A DNA stretch of 64,000 nucleotides, from positions 2,528,001-2,592,000 of the forward strand of contig OZ244042.1 in the NCBI GenBank assembly GCA_965215015.1. Reading direction: 5' to 3'. This DNA is from Candidatus Poribacteria bacterium. GTDB taxonomy: Bacteria; Poribacteria; WGA-4E; PCPOR2b. Below, one piece after another: positions 20,546-29,674 of the stretch. The stretch's first letter is position 1. Every line of letters starts with the position of its first letter. The notes beneath the pieces are model-generated. The model saw nothing but the letters and a program-made list of their open reading frames with translations, did not search any database and was not told the DNA's origin. The translations under genes were made by a program, and so were the position numbers.

Positions 20546-21884
20546 TTCATTTACCCCCATTTTTTTTTGGTTATAGATTTGAGATATTTTTATGATTTAG
20601 GATAGTGAGAATACCTGTCATTAAGGGTGTTTGCATGTATCTCCCCTGCACAGTGGGAGTGTGAACCATGGATTGAGACACCACCCGCTCCACGCCTCAG
20701 CCACCACTCGCTTTATCACGGTAATGAGTGAGTATATTTTAGTCCGTGTGTTGAATGTTTTTGCCCATCGATCGCCTGACTTTTGATAGGTGATAAACAG
20801 TAAGCCATAACTGATACAAGCTAAGAGCCATAACAGGTTGATGCGGGCTTTTGACGGTTTTTTGAGTCTCAAGCTGCCAAAGCCAAAACCGGTCTTGATG
20901 TCCCGAAAGCCGTGTTCAATCTGCATTCTTCGCTTATAATAGTGGTATATTTGACGCCCCGTCAGATGACTTGAAATCAGATACATCGGTTCAGCCAACC
21001 GCGCCTCTCTGACGACATACAGGTTGAGTCGAATCGGCTCGGTTAAGTGATAGAGAATCTGTGGATAGAACCCCGTTTCCTGCAACTGTTCTGCCTTTTT
21101 AACAGTGCCCCAGACGGTCATGCGCGCGTTACGACACACGCGGATGATAAACGGAATCCGTTGTGTCTTGAGAAACTTTATCACATATTTAGCACGCGCG
21201 AAGCCTCTATCGAATATCAACGTGGCTTCACACGGGGGCGGTAAAATCGCTTCTGTCTTTTGATACAGTGTGAGACAAAAGCGTTGGATAATCTCATTAT
21301 GGCTGGTATAGGTCAACTGTTGAATCTCAGCATCGGTGTAGAGGTGCCAGTAGATAGGAACCGCCCGGCGGCGGAACGGCACCGCGGCAACAATCGCTTT
21401 GAAATGGCCAAACACCTGGGTTTCATCCACTAAAATCAACCGGCGTCCGGCGTGACGTTCACAGACCCGGCGGAGCACAAAGCCCAACCAGCACCCCATC
21501 ACCGCGTCAATAGGAAAGCGACGAGCTAAGAATCGAAGCAGGCGTTTCTGTTTCGTCTTTTGATGTTTGACGGCTACTGGCAAGCGTAAAGCAATTTCGT
21601 TTATCCGAAACTTCTGGGCCAACACAATGGCTAGGATCGTGAGTATCAGGTTTTTTAACGCCGGTTTTTTCAATACGGGGTTGAAAATCTCGGTCAGAGT
21701 GGTTATCATAGAACTGGGATTCACCCGCTTATGGCGGTGGGTGCCTTTCATAATACCTCCTTGTTTAAAACAATGGTTATTTTATACAGGGAGGTATTTT
21801 ACCATATTTGATAACCCTTTCTCACATCTAGACCTCGCAAAAACAACCAACATTACAACTCTAAAAAAAATGGGGGTAAGTGAG
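20546..21884 (-). mobile_element. IS4-family insertion sequence
   Basis: TIRs TCATTTACCCCCATTTTTTTT / AAAAAAAATGGGGGTAAGTGA around one transposase; no clear TSD. Confidence 0.85.
20621..21751 (-). CDS. IS4-family DDE transposase
   Basis: LVDET, FDRGF, YKRRMQIEHGFRDIK (YREK motif). Confidence 0.92.
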   Translation of the reverse strand: MKGTHRHKRVNPSSMITTLTEIFNPVLKKPALKNLILTILAIVLAQKFRINEIALRLPVAVKHQKTKQKRLLRFLARRFPIDAVMGCWLGFVLRRVCERHAGRRLILVDETQVFGHFKAIVAAVPFRRRAVPIYWHLYTDAEIQQLTYTSHNEIIQRFCLTLYQKTEAILPPPCEATLIFDRGFARAKYVIKFLKTQRIPFIIRVCRNARMTVWGTVKKAEQLQETGFYPQILYHLTEPIRLNLYVVREARLAEPMYLISSHLTGRQIYHYYKRRMQIEHGFRDIKTGFGFGSLRLKKPSKARINLLWLLACISYGLLFITYQKSGDRWAKTFNTRTKIYSLITVIKRVVAEAWSGWCLNPWFTLPLCRGDTCKHP

Positions 21885-22197: not shown

Positions 22198-24636
22198 ATG
22201 GCGACAGAAAATTTAGTACCTTTTAACGCGGAGGCAATAGATCCAGATGATGCCCGTGCAATTGAAATTTATGAGATGCAGCTGGATCGTGTCCAAGCGG
22301 GTCAGATGCCGGAGGAGATTTTCCTCGAATTTAGACTGCGTCACGGTGTTTACGGGCAGCGCGATGAAGGTTCACAAATGATTCGCGTAAAGATTCCATT
22401 CGGCGGTCTAAACGCGGCACAACTGGAAATGTTGGCTGATGTTGCCGAAGAATTTTCGGATAATATCATTCATATCACGACTCGCCAAGATGTGCAGTAT
22501 CACTATGTGGATATTAACAATACGCCGGAGTTAATGCGTCGGTTGGCGTCAGTTGACATAACAACCAAGGAAGCGTGTGGTAATGTGGTTCGGAATGTCA
22601 CCGCTTGCCCGCTTTCTGGCGTGTGTAACGATGAACCGTTTGATGTAACGTCTCACTCCAAGGCACTGTCCGCCTTCCTGTTGGGTCATCAGGATGCACA
22701 AGATTTCGGACGTAAGTTCAAGATCGCGTTTTCCGGCTGCCATGAACATGCTTGCGGCTTAGGATACATGCACGATATCGGTGCAGTTGCGGTGATTAAA
22801 GAGATTGACGGCAAACCGAAGCGTGGATTTAAGTTGCTCGTCGGTGGTGGGCTTGGTGCTGTGCCACATCAGGCAAAAGTTTTTGATGAGTTTGTGCCTG
22901 AGGAGGAATTGTTGCCAATTTCACAGGCGATCTCGAAGGTATTCACCCGTCTCGGGGAACGTAAAAATCGCAATAAGGCGCGGATGAAGTTTGTCGTGGC
23001 AAAACTTGGTATTGAAGAATTTCGTCGCCTTGTGTTGGAAGAGCGTGAACAGTTACGCCATGACCCCGCGTGGACAGCTCATCTCGGCAATCTTGATGTG
23101 TATGACGAAACACCACTGAAGCCACCGACGCAGCTCAATGGCGCGTCAAAACCGGAAGGGTTTGATCCGTGGCATGCCTCAAACGTGCGTCCACAACGAC
23201 AGCCGGGATACGCAGTCGTCAATATCACGTTGCCGCTCGGAGACATCACCGCGGATCAAGCCCGGGCGTTGGCAGATATTTCGCGCAATTATGTGAAGGA
23301 CACCATTCGCACGACCGTTGAGCAGAATCTCGTTTTGCGTTGGGTCAGCATGAGCGATCTACCTGCGCTTTACCAGGAGCTCAAAGAAATAGGCTTGGGC
23401 GCATCGGGTGCTGAGAGTACTGTTGATATTACAGCATGTCCCGGCACCGATTCCTGCAAACTGGGTATCTCATCTTCTCGTGGGTTAGCTGCTTACTTGA
23501 GGAATTACTTCATCGAGACCGGTGTGAAGGAGGAGATTCAAGATCTGCGAATCAAGATCAGCGGTTGCCCCAATTCATGCGGTCAGCACCACATCGCAAA
23601 TATCGGGTTCTTTGGCTCATCACGACGTATGGGTAAACATATCGCCCCATATTATCAAGTCATGTTGGGGGGGCACGCTACCGAGAATGCGGGGGCTTAT
23701 GGACTTGCCGCCGGAAAGATTCACGGCAAGAACATCCCACAATTCATCGAGCACTTGACCGGACGATACCTTGAGGAACGGCAAGAGGACGAACCATTCA
23801 CCGATTATATTGCGAGACTTGGCAAGGTTAAGATTAAGGCAATCCTCCGCGAGTATGATAAGATCCCTACCTTCGAGGAAGATCCCAGCTACTATATCGA
23901 CACCGGCGACACGAAGGAATTTCAACTCAAGACGGGTGTTGGTGAATGTGCAGGGCAGTTGGTAGAGTTGGTATCGTTCATACTTGAGGAAGCGGATCGG
24001 CTAATCTATGAGTCGGGGGTTGATCTGGAGAATGATGAATATGTGGATTCGGCTCAACACGCTTATGAAGCGATGATCAAAGCCGCGGACGCATTGCTGA
24101 CGACCGAAGGGCTGCAACACATTGACGACGAGACGACGGTTCGAGAGTTCCGAAGTCGGTTCTTTGAGCCGGGCATTGTTTTCCCCGGTTTTGGAGCGCA
24201 TCTGTTCAAGGCGGTCGAGGAGGATTCCAGTACCTTTGATAGGGAGCTAACGCACCGCCGCGTCGAGGAAGCGACTCTCTTTGTTGAGGAAGCACATAAC
24301 GTCTACGGGCGGATGCGGATTCGACAGGAGGAGGAATCGAGCACTAAGAAGCGCGAAGCTAGACCGGCACGTATCCCCAAGGCACCGCCGAAAGCAGAGA
24401 AGGTCGAGGAGATTGTTGACAGTCTTGACCTCAAGGGTGTGGCGTGTCCGTTCAACTACGTGCAAGCCAAAATTCGCTTGGAGACGATGAATGTCGGTCA
24501 GCTGCTGGAAATCACGATTGACGATGGCGAACCGATTGAAAATGTCCCTAAGAGCCTCACGAATGATGGGCATAAGATTACTGATACCAAGAAGATTGGT
24601 CAGCACTATCGACTCGTGATTCGTAAAGGTGAATAA
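22198..24636 (+). CDS. Siroheme/4Fe-4S sulfite (or nitrite) reductase fused to a helical domain and C-terminal TusA domain
   Basis: GVYGQR, HITTRQ, RKFKIAFSGC, ACPGTDSC...ISGCPNSCGQH; C-terminal LDLKGVACPFNY. Confidence 0.9.
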   Translation: MATENLVPFNAEAIDPDDARAIEIYEMQLDRVQAGQMPEEIFLEFRLRHGVYGQRDEGSQMIRVKIPFGGLNAAQLEMLADVAEEFSDNIIHITTRQDVQYHYVDINNTPELMRRLASVDITTKEACGNVVRNVTACPLSGVCNDEPFDVTSHSKALSAFLLGHQDAQDFGRKFKIAFSGCHEHACGLGYMHDIGAVAVIKEIDGKPKRGFKLLVGGGLGAVPHQAKVFDEFVPEEELLPISQAISKVFTRLGERKNRNKARMKFVVAKLGIEEFRRLVLEEREQLRHDPAWTAHLGNLDVYDETPLKPPTQLNGASKPEGFDPWHASNVRPQRQPGYAVVNITLPLGDITADQARALADISRNYVKDTIRTTVEQNLVLRWVSMSDLPALYQELKEIGLGASGAESTVDITACPGTDSCKLGISSSRGLAAYLRNYFIETGVKEEIQDLRIKISGCPNSCGQHHIANIGFFGSSRRMGKHIAPYYQVMLGGHATENAGAYGLAAGKIHGKNIPQFIEHLTGRYLEERQEDEPFTDYIARLGKVKIKAILREYDKIPTFEEDPSYYIDTGDTKEFQLKTGVGECAGQLVELVSFILEEADRLIYESGVDLENDEYVDSAQHAYEAMIKAADALLTTEGLQHIDDETTVREFRSRFFEPGIVFPGFGAHLFKAVEEDSSTFDRELTHRRVEEATLFVEEAHNVYGRMRIRQEEESSTKKREARPARIPKAPPKAEKVEEIVDSLDLKGVACPFNYVQAKIRLETMNVGQLLEITIDDGEPIENVPKSLTNDGHKITDTKKIGQHYRLVIRKGE

Positions 24637-24656
24637 CGGATAAGGTGTTGTCAAAG

Positions 24657-24701
24657 TAAAGCGTGATGGACTGAAGCGGGGTTCGTCACGCTTTATTTTT
24701 T
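24657..24701 (+). terminator. Intrinsic terminator
   Basis: TAAAGCGTGATGGACT/GGTTCGTCACGCTTTA plus T-run. Confidence 0.75.
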
Positions 24702-24852
24702 GGGATGTTTGATGGCTAAGATTGAGATGCTTTTTGACATGAAGAAAGCAATAGGTGTCGAAAGACTGAAATGATCCCAGAATCGTTCTATTGACTGTCC
24801 TCTAGCAGTCCTCACCGTAACATCACTTTCCTGTTTGAAAAGGTATTTAACC

Positions 24853-25671
24853 ATGAATCAGAAATTTAAGATAAATTCAAAACTGAAAAAGTGGCTCAAG
24901 TGGATGGAGATTATTCAAGACGACATACAAATGCTTCTACGGGATACTAACATGTTCTGGGAAGTCCAAGACATCATCCGTGAGAATCCGGGTATCCAAA
25001 GGCCGAGTGCTTTCTATCGCTATCTTGGAAGGACTTATTTGTCTCATGCGCTAGTAGGGCTACGTCGGCAAATCAAACCGCAGAAGGACAGTATATCTTT
25101 TGTGGGATTGCTTGATGATATTGCTAAAAACCCTGAAGAGCTGTCTCGGAACTATTACCGTTCTCTCTATTCTCACCCTGATGGTCCCGACATCAACCAA
25201 ATCGAGATCGAGGGTAGGGAGGAACTTGAAGATATAGGGATTACCGGCAATTCTCAACTGAAAGAGTTGATACAGATGGATGACTTCGCACCATACGCAG
25301 ATGCCAGCGGAGAGCATGTGTGCCCCGATATGGTGAAAGACGATATAGATAAACTCAAGAAGACTGCAACAGCATGTGAGGATTTTGCTGATAAACGCAT
25401 TGCCCATCGGGATAAGAAAGAGCCGGAAGATGTCCCAAAGTTCAATGAATTGGATGATTGCATTAAATTGCTCGACAAGACGTATGTGAAATATCATCTC
25501 CTGTTTTACGCTGAATCAATAGATACGTTGATGCCAACCTATCAATATGAGTGGAAGGCTATTTTTTTGGAACCATGGTTAAAGACTGGTTTTGGAAGTG
25601 CCGAAGGACTTATTCACATCGGTGAAGATTTTGATGACGAACTCCCCGATTTTAAGGACTATATGGAATGA
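24853..25671 (+). CDS. AbiU2-like HEPN domain protein with antitoxin-like C-terminal tail
   Basis: Helical protein with DSISF and DKRIAH; tail GFGSAEGLIHIGEDFDDELPDFKDYME. Confidence 0.7.
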   Translation: MNQKFKINSKLKKWLKWMEIIQDDIQMLLRDTNMFWEVQDIIRENPGIQRPSAFYRYLGRTYLSHALVGLRRQIKPQKDSISFVGLLDDIAKNPEELSRNYYRSLYSHPDGPDINQIEIEGREELEDIGITGNSQLKELIQMDDFAPYADASGEHVCPDMVKDDIDKLKKTATACEDFADKRIAHRDKKEPEDVPKFNELDDCIKLLDKTYVKYHLLFYAESIDTLMPTYQYEWKAIFLEPWLKTGFGSAEGLIHIGEDFDDELPDFKDYME

Positions 25672-26054
25672 AATATCTGCTGGATACATGTACGCTACTT
25701 TGGTTTCTTGCTGGCGACGCAAAACTCAGCCGCAAAGCACGACAGTTGATTGATGATTCAAGTAATGAGAAATTCCTCAGCATCGTCAGTCTATGGGAGA
25801 TAGCAATTAAGGTAGGGTTAGGGAAAATTGATTTAGACAAACCGTTCGAGCAGATATTTCCAGAGAGACTGGATTTCAATCATATTTGGATATTGGATAT
25901 CACAGTTAATAGCCTCGCAAAGTTGACTACGTTACCCTTGCATCACCGAGATCCGTTTGACCGTTTGATAATTGCTCAAGGGCTTACCGAAGGATTTCCA
26001 ATAATTAGCGTAGATGAAACCTTTGATGCTTACGGTGTAAGCAGAGAATGGTAA
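25668..26054 (+). CDS. vapC: PIN domain toxin (VapC family)
   Basis: LLDTCTLLW, SLWEIAIK, HRDPFDRLIIAQ, SVD; ATGA overlap with upstream gene. Confidence 0.93.
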   Translation: MKYLLDTCTLLWFLAGDAKLSRKARQLIDDSSNEKFLSIVSLWEIAIKVGLGKIDLDKPFEQIFPERLDFNHIWILDITVNSLAKLTTLPLHHRDPFDRLIIAQGLTEGFPIISVDETFDAYGVSREW

Positions 26055-26214
26055 TGATAGGACAAATACGGAACCAATGTTGGATTTCAAGTACAAAGGT
26101 TAGTAAAGAGAGTAAGTGGTTGAAATTACAACTTTCAGCACCCCCCCCCTACTCTTCTTAGAAACCGACAGCTAAGTTTTTTTGGGGGGATTGAAAGGAG
26201 AAACTTATTAAGCA

Positions 26215-27268
26215 ATGACACTTAATGAACACCTTGATGACATACACCACGATTTAACAAGAGGGGTATTTGCAAATGAGGCATCAGTTTCTCAGGGAAT
26301 CATACTTAGGTTACTCGGTGCACTGGGTTGGCCAAAGTATGATACGCAGGTTATCGTTCCTGAATATTCAGTTGAGGGTAGAAGGGTAGATTATGCTCTG
26401 TGCCACCCGCTGTCAAAGCCTCTAGTTTTCATTGAAGTCAAACAGGTTGGCCAAATTGAAGGGGCAGAGAGACAATTATTTGAATACGCTTTTCACACAG
26501 GGGTTCCAATCGCTGTCCTCACTGATGGTCGGGAATGGCACTTTTTTCAACCGGGTGGCCAAGGAGATTACGGAGAACGTCGGGTATGTAAACTGGATCT
26601 GATCGAAACAGACAATGAGGAGATTTTGAAACGTCTTAACCGATACTTGAAATACGAGTCGATACGCACCGGTGAAGCCATTACGGCAATCGAAAACGAC
26701 TATCGGAATATCTCCAAGCAGAGACAGATTGAGAGCAGTTTGCCAGAGGCATGGACTGAATTGGTGGAGGAGGCAGATGAACTTTTGATAGATGGAGTAG
26801 CGGAGAGAACGGAAAGTCTGTGTGGGCATAAACCAACTAGCGAGCAAGTGTTAGCTTTCCTGAAAAGTCTAAATGGGGATAGATCAACCCAGGGAGCCCC
26901 TTCTCCACCAACAGACTCCGGGGATAGGCCCCCCCTCGAGAAAAACCCCTTCTCCACCAACAAACCCCTCGGGTAGAAAGCTACCGACAAACCTTATCGT
27001 AACTATGCCTAATGGAGAAGAGATTGCTCATAATAGCGCAAAGAAAACCTTTGTTGAGGTAATTGAAAGGCTAGGAATAGAGAGGGTGAGAAGTGTTTAT
27101 CCTGATCTCTTCTCTACCTCATCAATTAAATATGGATATCAGGTTGGTCAGTATTATACAAAAGAGAGAGACACAGTGAACAAGAAGCGAATCCTTGAAC
27201 ATATTGCCGCCCGGCTTGGTGTAGGGTTGGAAATAGAGATACGCCTCAAAGGCGCCTCAAAGGATTGA
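26215..27268 (+). pseudogene. HsdR_N-type PD-(D/E)xK nuclease, copy 1, +1 frameshift at a C7 run
   Basis: Near-identical to 27775-28824; stops at 26976; C-terminal domain continues in the 26873-27268 frame. Confidence 0.85.
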
Positions 27269-27541
27269 ATTAATCAATCGAGGGTTGCAAGAATATCAAT
27301 AACAGACATGGAGGCACACCGACCCATTGTTACAATCAGCAGCGACGCCTGTGATTTTATTGATGTTCTTAAGTTTTCAGCAGCCTCTGTTCTTAAGAGT
27401 TCTTCGATAAACTGGTTTTACGAAGAACTACACTTGTTCGTTAAGTTTTTAGTAAAGGAGCGAAACTGATTTCGTCTCCTTATGTCCGAAATGGGTGTTA
27501 AAATCATTTATAAAAAAAGGAGTTTCTGATTACAGCAAGCT

Positions 27542-27685
27542 ATGGATTTACAACAGATTAACATCAAGGTCTTCGTCAGAGAAGATAGTCATATCAATTA
27601 CGAAAATTTCATCAGGGTTTTCAACCGATACGGAACCAATGTTGGATTTCAAGTACAAAGGTTAGTAAAGAGAGTAAGTGGTTGA
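27542..27685 (+). pseudogene. Truncated duplicate of the first 29 codons of the 29093 gene
   Basis: MDLQQINIKVFVREDSHINYENFIRVFNR then junction-derived sequence to TGA. Confidence 0.85.
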
Positions 27686-27774
27686 CATTACAATTTTCAG
27701 CACCCCCCCTACTCGTCTTAGAAACCGACAGCTGAGTTTTTTTGGGGGGATTGAAAGGAGAAACTTATTAAGCA

Positions 27775-28824
27775 ATGACACTCAATCAACACCTTGATGA
27801 CATACACCACGATTTAACAAGAGGGGTATTTGCAAATGAGGCATCAGTTTCTCAGGGAATCATACTTAGGTTACTCGGTGCACTGGGTTGGCCAAAGTAT
27901 GATACGCAGGTTATCGTTCCTGAATATTCAGTTGAGGGTAGAAGGGTAGATTATGCTCTGTGCCACCCGCCGTCAAAGCCTCTAGTTTTCATTGAAGTCA
28001 AACAGGTTGGCCAAATTGAAGGGGCAGAGAGACAATTATTTGAATACGCTTTTCACACAGGGGTTCCAATCGCTGTCCTCACTGATGGTCGGGAATGGCA
28101 CTTTTTTCAACCGGGTGGCCAAGGAGATTACGGAGAACGTCGGGTATGTAAACTGGATCTGATCGAAACAGACAATGAGGAGATTTTGAAACGTCTTAAC
28201 CGATACTTGAAATACGAGTCGATACGCACCGGTGAAGCCATTACGGCAATCGAAAACGACTATCGGAATATCTCCAAGCAGAGACAGATTGAGAGAAGTT
28301 TGCCAGAGGCATGGACTAAATTGGTGGAGGACGCAGATGAATTTTTGATAGATGTAGTAGCGAAGATAACGGAAAGTCTGTGTGGGCATAAACCAACTAG
28401 CGAGCAAGTATTAGCTTTCCTGAAAAGCCTAAATAGGGATAGACCAACCCAGGGAGCCCCTTCTCCACCAACAGGCTCCGAGGATAGGCCACCCCCGAAA
28501 AAGGATCCTTCTCCACCAACAGACTCCTCGGGTAGAAAGCCATCGACAAACCTTATCGTAACTATGCCCAATAGAGAAAGGATTGCTCATCATAGCGCAA
28601 GGAAAACCTTTACTGAGGTAATTGAAAGGCTAGGAATAGATAGAGTGAGAAGTGTTTATCCTGATCTCTTCTCTACCTCGAAATTACCTTATAGCCATCG
28701 GGTTGGTCAGTATTATATAAAAGATGTGGCAGGCACAAGGACCAGAAAGCGAACCCTTGAACGTATTGCCGCCCGGCTTGGTGTAGAGTTGGAAATAGAG
28801 ATACGCCTCAAAGGATTGAATTAA
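27775..28824 (+). CDS. Stand-alone HsdR N-terminal-type restriction nuclease with Pro-rich linker and C-terminal domain, copy 2
   Basis: VPEY..RVDYAL..FIEVK, QLFEYAF, LTDGREW; PSPPT linker repeats. Confidence 0.85.
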   Translation: MTLNQHLDDIHHDLTRGVFANEASVSQGIILRLLGALGWPKYDTQVIVPEYSVEGRRVDYALCHPPSKPLVFIEVKQVGQIEGAERQLFEYAFHTGVPIAVLTDGREWHFFQPGGQGDYGERRVCKLDLIETDNEEILKRLNRYLKYESIRTGEAITAIENDYRNISKQRQIERSLPEAWTKLVEDADEFLIDVVAKITESLCGHKPTSEQVLAFLKSLNRDRPTQGAPSPPTGSEDRPPPKKDPSPPTDSSGRKPSTNLIVTMPNRERIAHHSARKTFTEVIERLGIDRVRSVYPDLFSTSKLPYSHRVGQYYIKDVAGTRTRKRTLERIAARLGVELEIEIRLKGLN

Positions 28825-29092
28825 TCAATCGAGGGTTGCAAGAATATCAATAACAGACATGGAGGCACACTGACCCATTGTTACAATCAGCGGCGACGCC
28901 TGTGATTTTATTGATGTTCTTAAGTTTTCAGCAGCCTCTGTTCTTAAGAGTTCTTCGATAAACTGGTTTTACGAAGAACTACACTTGTTCGTTAAGTTTT
29001 TAGTAAAGGAGCGAAACTGATTTCGTCTCCTTATGCCCGAAATGGGTGTTAAAATCATTTATAAAAAAAGGAGTTTCTGATTACAGCAAGCT

Positions 29093-29674
29093 ATGGATTT
29101 ACAACAGATTAACATCAAGGTCTTCGTCACAGAAGACAGTCATATCAATTACGAAAATTTCATCAGGGTTTTCAACCGATGGATGGCGGAAGGCGGCCCC
29201 GATGAATACCTGAACTACGCTGATTACTCGTTTACCTATGCGGGCCCCGGCGTTCTGCTAATTGCCAAAAGCACAAATTATAGCATAGATGCAGCCAGAA
29301 GTCGGCACGGCTTTCTTTATAACCGGAAGCATAAGGTAGACGGGGATAATCGCGAAAAAATTCATCAGGCATTCATCGAGACACTGCAAAGATGTGTCCG
29401 TTTAGAAGAAGCCGAAGAACTGGAGAACGCAGTGCATCTAAACGGGGATGAAATCCTATTTATGATTAATAACCGCCATATCGCGCCGAATACCCAAGAG
29501 ATGTTTGAGGCGATTCAACCGGATTTAACCGCTGTGCTTGAGCAGATGTACAGTGGGAATGACTTTACTGTTGAACGTACATCTGAAGATGTGCGGGAAC
29601 GGTTTGCAGTTCAAATCTCTGCGCGTTCAGGCAAAGGAATTTCGGATCTGCTAGCGAACTTGGAAAATAATTAG
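29093..29674 (+). CDS. Conserved hypothetical protein, probably sulfur-assimilation associated
   Basis: 193 aa; ADY...GPGVLLI...YNRK pattern that I recall next to sulfite reductase/MoeB genes; co-oriented with moeB. Confidence 0.75.
   Translation: MDLQQINIKVFVTEDSHINYENFIRVFNRWMAEGGPDEYLNYADYSFTYAGPGVLLIAKSTNYSIDAARSRHGFLYNRKHKVDGDNREKIHQAFIETLQRCVRLEEAEELENAVHLNGDEILFMINNRHIAPNTQEMFEAIQPDLTAVLEQMYSGNDFTVERTSEDVRERFAVQISARSGKGISDLLANLENN

Follow-up and report, generated by a model that had tools for sequence, protein, structure and literature searches.

The stretch of DNA analysed here (the window; 64,000 nucleotides of contig OZ244042.1 from the Candidatus Poribacteria assembly GCA_965215015.1) contains a two-gene module in which open reading frame (ORF) A is followed directly by ORF B, the latter encoding a PIN-domain protein. 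The product of gene A joins an AbiU2-like domain to a C-terminal tail homologous to those of small VapB-type antitoxins. An earlier note on this DNA, made from the letters alone, had read the pair in this way, and the matches to Pfam PF18734 and NCBIfam NF050009 and the ATGA overlap between the genes bear that reading out. The tail, which it had put at about 28 residues, is present with a length of 27. Coordinates of all features are summarized in Table 1.

Table 1. Features of the module and of its 5' boundary.
Feature	Position	Strand	Basis and remarks
Hairpin followed by a T-run	24653..24705	+	Inverted repeat I3, arms 24653-24671 and 24681-24699, 84% complementary, then TTTATTTTTT
Gene A, AbiU2-like/VapB-tail protein, putative antitoxin	24853..25671	+	ATG start; 272 residues; 413 homologues
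AbiU2-like helical domain, residues ~8-245	24874..25587	+	Pfam PF18734
C-terminal tail, residues 246-272, putative PIN-binding tail of VapB/Phd/DUF2281 type by homology	25588..25668	+	GFGSAEGLIHIGEDFDDELPDFKDYME; NF050009; tail of plasmid antitoxin P0288
ATGA start/stop overlap, putative translational coupling	25668..25671	+	Sequence
Gene B, putative VapC-type PIN-domain toxin	25668..26054	+	128 residues; PF01850

An alternative TTG start at 24835 would lengthen gene A by 6 residues; its homologues begin MNQ. Gene A ends ...TAT ATG GAA TGA, and the ATG of gene B lies inside this end (context TATATGGAATGAAATAT), so that the two genes share four nucleotides, as the earlier note had stated. Among loci L001-L030, the same junction geometry is repeated in 22 of the 26 that have an adjacent PIN gene. 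Beyond this locus, no second match to the VapB model and no second PIN gene of the subfamily were found in the genome to which the window belongs.

The two parts of the gene A product and its PIN partner

Gene A matched Pfam PF18734 (HEPN_AbiU2) with an E-value of 1.9e-8 and 34.5 bits, against a gathering cut-off of 26.8. The match is partial, with residues 163-233 aligned to positions 110-187 of the 193-position profile, and relatives match more of it (residues 37-191 with 30.8 bits for the protein at L066, residues 14-179 with 26.9 bits for that at L130). HEPN_AbiU2 was the only Pfam family found at E<=1, and no NCBIfam DNA-binding family was matched, an AbrB, RHH, Phd or HTH head being absent. 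AlphaFold2, supplied with an 86-row alignment, modelled residues 1-245 as a confident helical domain (mean predicted local distance difference test score, pLDDT, 87.8; predicted template modelling score, pTM, 0.81) with long helices at residues 9-44, 53-74, 158-184, and 197-219. Residues ~111-141 form a variable insert that is absent from most relatives. The nearest clusters in the ESM Atlas were AbiU2 in 30 of 30 cases, and a Foldseek search of the PDB with the gene A model gave no match at E<=0.001.

Residues W14, W17, N45, R71, R72, S82, D164, A184, H185, D187, Y214, and others are near-invariant across the 86 sequences. Around the histidine the clade shares the motif [FY]-A-[DN]-[KR]-R-[IV]-A-H-x-D and, in 64 distant representatives that include tail-less proteins, the counts are 40 for A179, 60 for D/N180, 58 for K/R181, 62 for A184, 62 for H185, and 59 for D187. 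This motif departs from Rx4-6H: K/R181 stands at -4 of H185 ([DN]-[KR]-x3-H), positions -5 to -7 are D/N, A, and F/Y, and a Streptomyces member with 22% identity reads TNKILLH at the motif. The earlier note was thus correct in calling ADKRIAH (residues 179-185) non-canonical. To judge from the counts, however, the spacing is the family's own conserved pattern and not a loss in the gene A protein, and because tailed and tail-less members retain the motif alike, the missing first arginine cannot be used to argue that this copy has become merely regulatory, a role that the note had offered as possible. A second candidate HEPN motif, R60-x4-H65 (RTYLSH), was rejected, as it is invariant among close homologues only (R60 in 5 and H65 in 8 of 64 across the wider family).

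The NCBIfam model NF050009 (TA_VapB) matches residues 226-271 over its positions 23-65 of 65 (E 4.2e-8). At 33.6 bits this is a part-match below the whole-protein cut-off of 60 bits, so that the tail alone belongs to the model and gene A is not a VapB equivalog. The tail is predicted to be disordered (pLDDT below 50 for residues 248-263 and 270-272 in the AlphaFold2 model), and nine of its residues (G248, S249, A250, G252, I254, F260, L264, F267, and Y270) are invariant in 22 homologues. Residues 248-272 are identical at 14 of 25 positions (56%, E 1e-7) to the last 25 residues of P0288, a 75-residue antitoxin of Chondrocystis sp. NIES-4102 plasmid3 that consists of a PhdYeFM head (PF02604/TIGR01552) and the tail ...GSAKGKVWMSDDFDEPLEDFKEYME. 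In Pfam, this P0288 tail corresponds to the end of DUF2281, and in NCBIfam to positions 38-65 of TA_VapB.

The claim that this is the tail of small antitoxins preceding the same PIN subfamily also stands. Searches with the PIN protein matched 535 plasmid records, the nearest of which show 46-48% identity (46-47% for those on cyanobacterial plasmids) and have small antitoxins upstream in the four examined. Within the phylum, PIN proteins 73-75% identical to gene B stand behind antitoxins of ~75 residues ending ...HFGSAKGLIVMAEDFDAELPDFREYME (L160, L161), and at L163-L165 and L167 remoter PIN proteins sit behind antitoxins with a different small head and a related tail. One of the latter, at L165:773-1030 (+), is a small antitoxin with the tail ...KFGSCKGFFKMSPDFDEPLDDFKEYMQ located 5' of a PIN gene whose product is 47% identical to that of the window; in our own reading, its head resembles DUF2281 proteins (...LPEHLKKEVVDFLESL...). 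In a word index that needs near-identity, a search for shorter proteins with this tail turned up only fragments of the same family, and no longer fused forms of gene A were found, which is weak evidence.

A VapB-type tail (...GKVKIAEDFDELPESFMAFFQGEDE) was also observed on a 607-residue TPR-repeat protein of another Poribacteria genome (L169:928-2751, -), which overlaps a PIN gene (L169:554-931, -) by four nucleotides. The pair adjoins a HigB-type toxin gene and a Type ISP restriction enzyme gene. The TPR protein is a further head of a kind other than DNA-binding, so that the tail is portable onto other heads as well.

Gene B matches PF01850 (PIN) with an E-value of 1.8e-14 and, in 20 orthologues, its acidic residues E44, D95, D98, and D116 are invariant while D6 is conserved in at least 90%. 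On these grounds, gene B can be assigned to the VapC-type PIN ribonucleases, its acidic active site being intact. A complex of the PIN protein with residues 236-272 of the gene A protein was predicted with an interaction score (ipSAE) of 0.39 (0.39, 0.42, and 0.34 in separate runs), compared with 0.01 at most among three controls; agreement of contacts was at least 83% and partner pLDDT was at least 58. In calibration, 58 of 80 solved complexes attained the ipSAE mark, as did 2 of 110 mismatched pairs, and values at or below 0.60 accounted for 7 of the 80 solved complexes and both mismatches. Sequence searches of the PDB with the PIN profile and with P0288 gave nothing significant, and hence no close solved complex by sequence.

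Relatives, a parallel MazF case, and the surroundings of the locus

A word-indexed search with gene A found 413 homologues at E<=1e-3. Of these, 119 other than the query itself were listed, and the tail motif forms part of the same ORF in 108 of them. Matches occur in 86 of the 176 genomes of the phylum (68 of the 133 of good quality), the named relatives being Candidatus Poribacteria, and the tail lies in one ORF in 30 of the 30 best loci from other genomes. Contigs of public runs from other studies also span the tail and the junction: contig X7 is identical over 25514-25901, and over 25464-26085 contig X9 differs by 25 substitutions and no indel. Contigs X1 and X4 show no difference over all of 24700-26100 and may be near the source. 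The earlier note had suggested looking for the fusion in other genomes and had considered that it might be unique to this assembly and unsupported by reads; it is neither, and the fusion is an old one.

To examine the coupling, we sampled the 30 best loci, 20 regions that matched to the end of the query, and 20 that stopped near residue 245, dropping the edge-cut L015. Genes were classed by their tail first; only then did we look for a PIN-subfamily ORF, using a profile built from 20 orthologues. Such an ORF lies directly downstream of 42 of the 51 tailed genes (35 full length, 7 partial), compared with 0 of the 22 genes that are without a PIN-type tail. Among the nine tailed loci that lack one, short PIN remnants are present in L042, L044, and L054, a remnant is found 1.2 kb away behind an insertion in L020, and a transposase-like ORF occurs in L003. 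Overall, PIN is shortened or lost beside an intact gene A in 16 of the 51 loci, and both genes are damaged in L077, L082, and L084. In L004 and L009, where PIN is missing, the tailed gene is followed by a 78-residue gene that resembles UPF0150/HicB weakly (E 3.9e-4, under the cut-off).

A quick maximum-likelihood tree of 80 domains places 34 long-form tailed genes in one group (support 85) and 17 short-form genes, in which the tail comes directly after ...TLQPPRQ, in another (support 98). Both groups lie in an unresolved set together with tail-less Poribacteria genes.

A distant clade of the same tree contains AbiU2-like proteins of 236-239 residues that end ...TEWWNTEGDKEWDEWSP (L066-L069). 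Three of their genes overlap a PemK/MazF gene of 111 residues by 14 nucleotides (Pfam E 6e-8 to 1e-9), and in the fourth locus, L069, mazF is frameshifted beside an intact AbiU2-tail gene. This MazF subfamily occurs in 33 of the 176 genomes at E<=1e-10. At the 20 MazF loci fetched, the gene is accompanied in 16 by a small antitoxin ending ...STDWWDVEGDKEWDEWTP and in 4 by an AbiU2-like domain (profile E 1e-84 to 5e-58) ending ...STEWWNTEGDKEWDEWSP, with the same Trp/acidic tail as the small antitoxins. The small MazF antitoxin matches no Pfam family and, in our own reading, looks RHH-like. Judged by their sequences, the MazF and PIN cases are the same kind of event, in which the head has been exchanged and the toxin-specific tail kept.

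An exhaustive cluster search at E<=1e-3 returned 1,774 clusters. Among the 150 matches listed, most proteins are 205-250 residues long, cover query residues 8-110 and 142-244, and end ...W..IF..PW; a regular expression detected the VapB-type tail in only two of those listed (P0124, P0132), and P0134 has a variant tail that the pattern missed. Members found outside Poribacteria by motif pattern (Pseudomonadota, Myxococcota, Thermodesulfobacteriota, and Thermomicrobiota) are tail-less, save for one unclassified genome with tail and PIN. Tail-less Poribacteria genes are often located directly 3' of TPR, trypsin-like peptidase-TPR, or WD40 repeat genes on the same strand (L057, L060, L061, L070, L072, L073, L074), and in L059 an AAA_15 ATPase gene lies downstream of the tail-less gene. 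In Nitrospinota (L130:1148-2032, +), an AbiU2-like domain is followed within one protein by a C-terminal DUF2442 domain (E 5e-19). The gene lies directly 3' of a HEPN/nucleotidyltransferase pair, and the contig ends 79 bases further on. Searches with gene A by tblastn found no match in phages and one distant match in plasmids, a Streptomyces member of 21.6% identity with a 40-residue Pro/acidic C-terminal extension (L139:1480-2274, +). The next ORF encodes 152 residues and matches no Pfam family; this is possibly another combination of head, tail, and partner.

The 5' neighbour of the module (22198-24636) encodes an 812-residue protein in which nitrite/sulfite reductase domains are joined to a TusA sulfurtransferase domain at the C-terminus. 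The hairpin that follows it (Table 1) would form the 5' boundary of a transcription unit belonging to the module alone; a simple terminator scan did not list it, and a sigma-70 scan upstream of gene A, using a consensus that may not apply to this phylum, gave no promoter. A DDE transposase gene lies at 20621-21751. On the 3' side, a tandem duplication of ~1.56 kb extends over 26066-29190 (copies at 26066-27627 and 27628-29190; repeat families D1-D6 with 86-100% identity), each copy of which holds an HSDR_N-like gene (type I restriction R N-terminal, PF04313). This gene is broken into two ORFs in the first copy (26215-26976 and 26873-27268) and is whole in the second (27775-28824, 349 residues). 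The reductase gene precedes the module in 6 of the 30 best loci and the HSDR_N-like gene follows it in 6, so that conservation of the site within the genus is partial.

A head exchange in a probable toxin-antitoxin module

We consider it probable that genes A and B form a type II toxin-antitoxin module in which the head of the antitoxin has been exchanged for an AbiU2-like domain; this head may bring the toxin under infection-linked control. Antitoxins of this type usually combine a DNA-binding head with a toxin-binding tail; here the tail has been kept, and an AbiU2-type domain (~240 residues, putatively of the HEPN superfamily), from a family known only from phage-defence contexts, has taken the place of the DNA-binding and dimerisation head. 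By homology, the 27-residue tail would most likely lie in the active-site groove of PIN and block it. The head would supply dimerisation together with an infection-linked input, making toxin release depend on an infection-related signal, as a sensor or regulator much like the sensor- or guard-type system that the earlier note had considered, and possibly with RNase activity of its own. Such a role is suggested for the head because stand-alone AbiU2-domain proteins have been linked to phage defence (10.64898/2026.03.17.712381); lactococcal abiU2, for its part, was not toxic in E. coli (PMC3985639). The replacement of the head in front of both PIN and MazF toxins points to the AbiU2-like domain as an exchangeable antitoxin head, and the loss or shortening of toxin genes beside intact head-tail genes (the 16 PIN loci and one MazF locus) is a decay pattern that suits an antitoxin.

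Several observations weigh against this reading. As the gene A protein has no DNA-binding domain, the usual type II autoregulation is left without an evident basis. A wide structure search gave the HEPN entries 3jrt_A (Z 8.2; root-mean-square deviation 5.2 over 140 aligned residues), 5yep_B (Z 6.8), and 7ae2_A (Z 6.7), which do not rise above generic helical bundles of equal Z. The putative active-site residues R71, R72, H185, D187, N45, D164, and Y214 are equally conserved in tailed and tail-less members, which would also suit a catalytic effector. The nine tailed genes without a PIN ORF are intact and their tails still conserved, so that gene A may have a PIN-independent role, or the PIN losses may be recent. 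At L079 (G025:C1:6098400-6101000), the sole case of its kind seen, gene A has one in-frame TGA beside an intact full-length PIN gene (67% identity), which is unexpected if gene A is essential to hold PIN; the stop could be a sequencing error or could mark a live toxin without its full antitoxin. The relatives are moreover not independent, and on the tree a single gain would suffice for the PIN-type tail, and one or two for the MazF-type tail. Finally, the support that the reading draws from the complex prediction proposed in the earlier note is weak.

It is unlikely that the pair is a plain selfish or addiction module in which the AbiU2-like domain is a mere dimerisation scaffold replacing Phd, with no role in sensing, catalysis, or defence. 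It is like ordinary VapBC pairs in gene order, overlap, and tail, and its position, a small variable islet flanked by housekeeping genes, is close to the DDE transposase. PADLOC-DB 2.0 returned 0 families for gene A or gene B at E<=1, and thus no described anti-phage model was matched. A scaffold alone, however, would not need the polar residues that tailed proteins share with tail-less members, and the same domain has been recruited twice, for different toxins. In the quick tree, the long-tail clade follows the family groups f1, f2, and f4 of the phylum, a pattern suggestive of long vertical retention.

We think it quite unlikely that the two genes encode a two-nuclease effector, in which the AbiU2-like domain would be an active HEPN RNase and the real effector, the tail would tether PIN, and both nucleases would fire on infection, gene A not being primarily an antitoxin. 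The tail is homologous to small-antitoxin tails whose only known job is neutralisation, and it is the toxin genes that decay first. While H185, D187, R71, R72, and further polar positions hardly vary within the clade, there is no arginine at the Rx4-6H spacing, and a study of lactococcal abiU2 describes that gene as non-toxic in E. coli (PMC3985639). What keeps a catalytic head in consideration is, apart from those residues, the nine intact tailed genes without PIN and a preprint, according to which a stand-alone AbiU2-domain protein encoded by an integron cassette conferred resistance to T4 and T7 (10.64898/2026.03.17.712381). That an assembly or frameshift error joined an AbiU2 gene to a small vapB is exceedingly improbable, as nothing was found for it and both the single-ORF tails of the homologues and the independent contigs crossing the junction speak against it.

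Beyond the exchange of an antitoxin head, a broader proposal may be put forward tentatively. The AbiU2-like HEPN domain could be a recurrent sensor head that, with captured tails (Phd/DUF2281-type for PIN, Trp/acidic for MazF, perhaps the DUF2442 module), turns toxin-antitoxin pairs into infection-triggered abortive infection systems, a defence domain both detecting phage and holding a borrowed toxin; a further head of this sort could be TPR proteins with a PIN tail, as at L169. The exchange can be observed with two unrelated toxins, and the ordinary small antitoxins that persist in sister genomes offer a natural control. The locus is therefore a clean and testable case of toxin-antitoxin pairs possibly rewired into defence, and a handle on the poorly understood AbiU2 domain.

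Comparison with known systems

Among the nearest described systems are VapBC type II pairs with a Phd/YefM- or DUF2281-type VapB, such as that of the Chondrocystis plasmid, in which the PIN toxin is 46-47% identical, the antitoxin likewise lies upstream of PIN with a 4-nucleotide overlap, and the tail ...GSAKG...DDFD.PL.DFKEYME is common to both. The two differ in the head, which is Phd (PF02604/TIGR01552) in the plasmid antitoxin and an AbiU2-like domain of ~240 residues here, where no DNA-binding domain is recognisable. Gene A differs from lactococcal AbiU2 (PF18734) in its antitoxin tail and in its coupling to PIN. AbiU2 is itself reported to down-regulate AbiU1. A survey of HEPN domains lists Rx4-6H as conserved in AbiU2, in contrast to the [DN]-[KR]-x3-H of the clade described here, and gives Sel1-repeat proteins as partners of AbiU2 in its Table 1 (PMC3710099); the TPR and WD40 neighbours of the tail-less relatives recall these partners.

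Our literature search found no description of an AbiU2-headed antitoxin, and no AbiU2 node was seen in the text of the NetFlax study (PMC10440598), whose supplementary tables lay outside the search and could list one. HEPN-MNT (type VII) systems also place a HEPN-superfamily domain in a two-gene toxin-antitoxin setting. There, however, HEPN is the toxin and the MNT nucleotidyltransferase is the antitoxin, whereas here MNT is absent and a HEPN-like protein stands in the antitoxin position. In concept, the module also resembles hyperpromiscuous antitoxins such as PanA/Panacea of the NetFlax network, in which one antitoxin domain is combined with various toxins and neutralises them via a terminal linear segment (PMC10440598). 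The AbiU2-like head belongs to another fold and family, gene A having no Pfam match to Panacea, and the toxin-specific tails seen here have been borrowed from existing small antitoxins.

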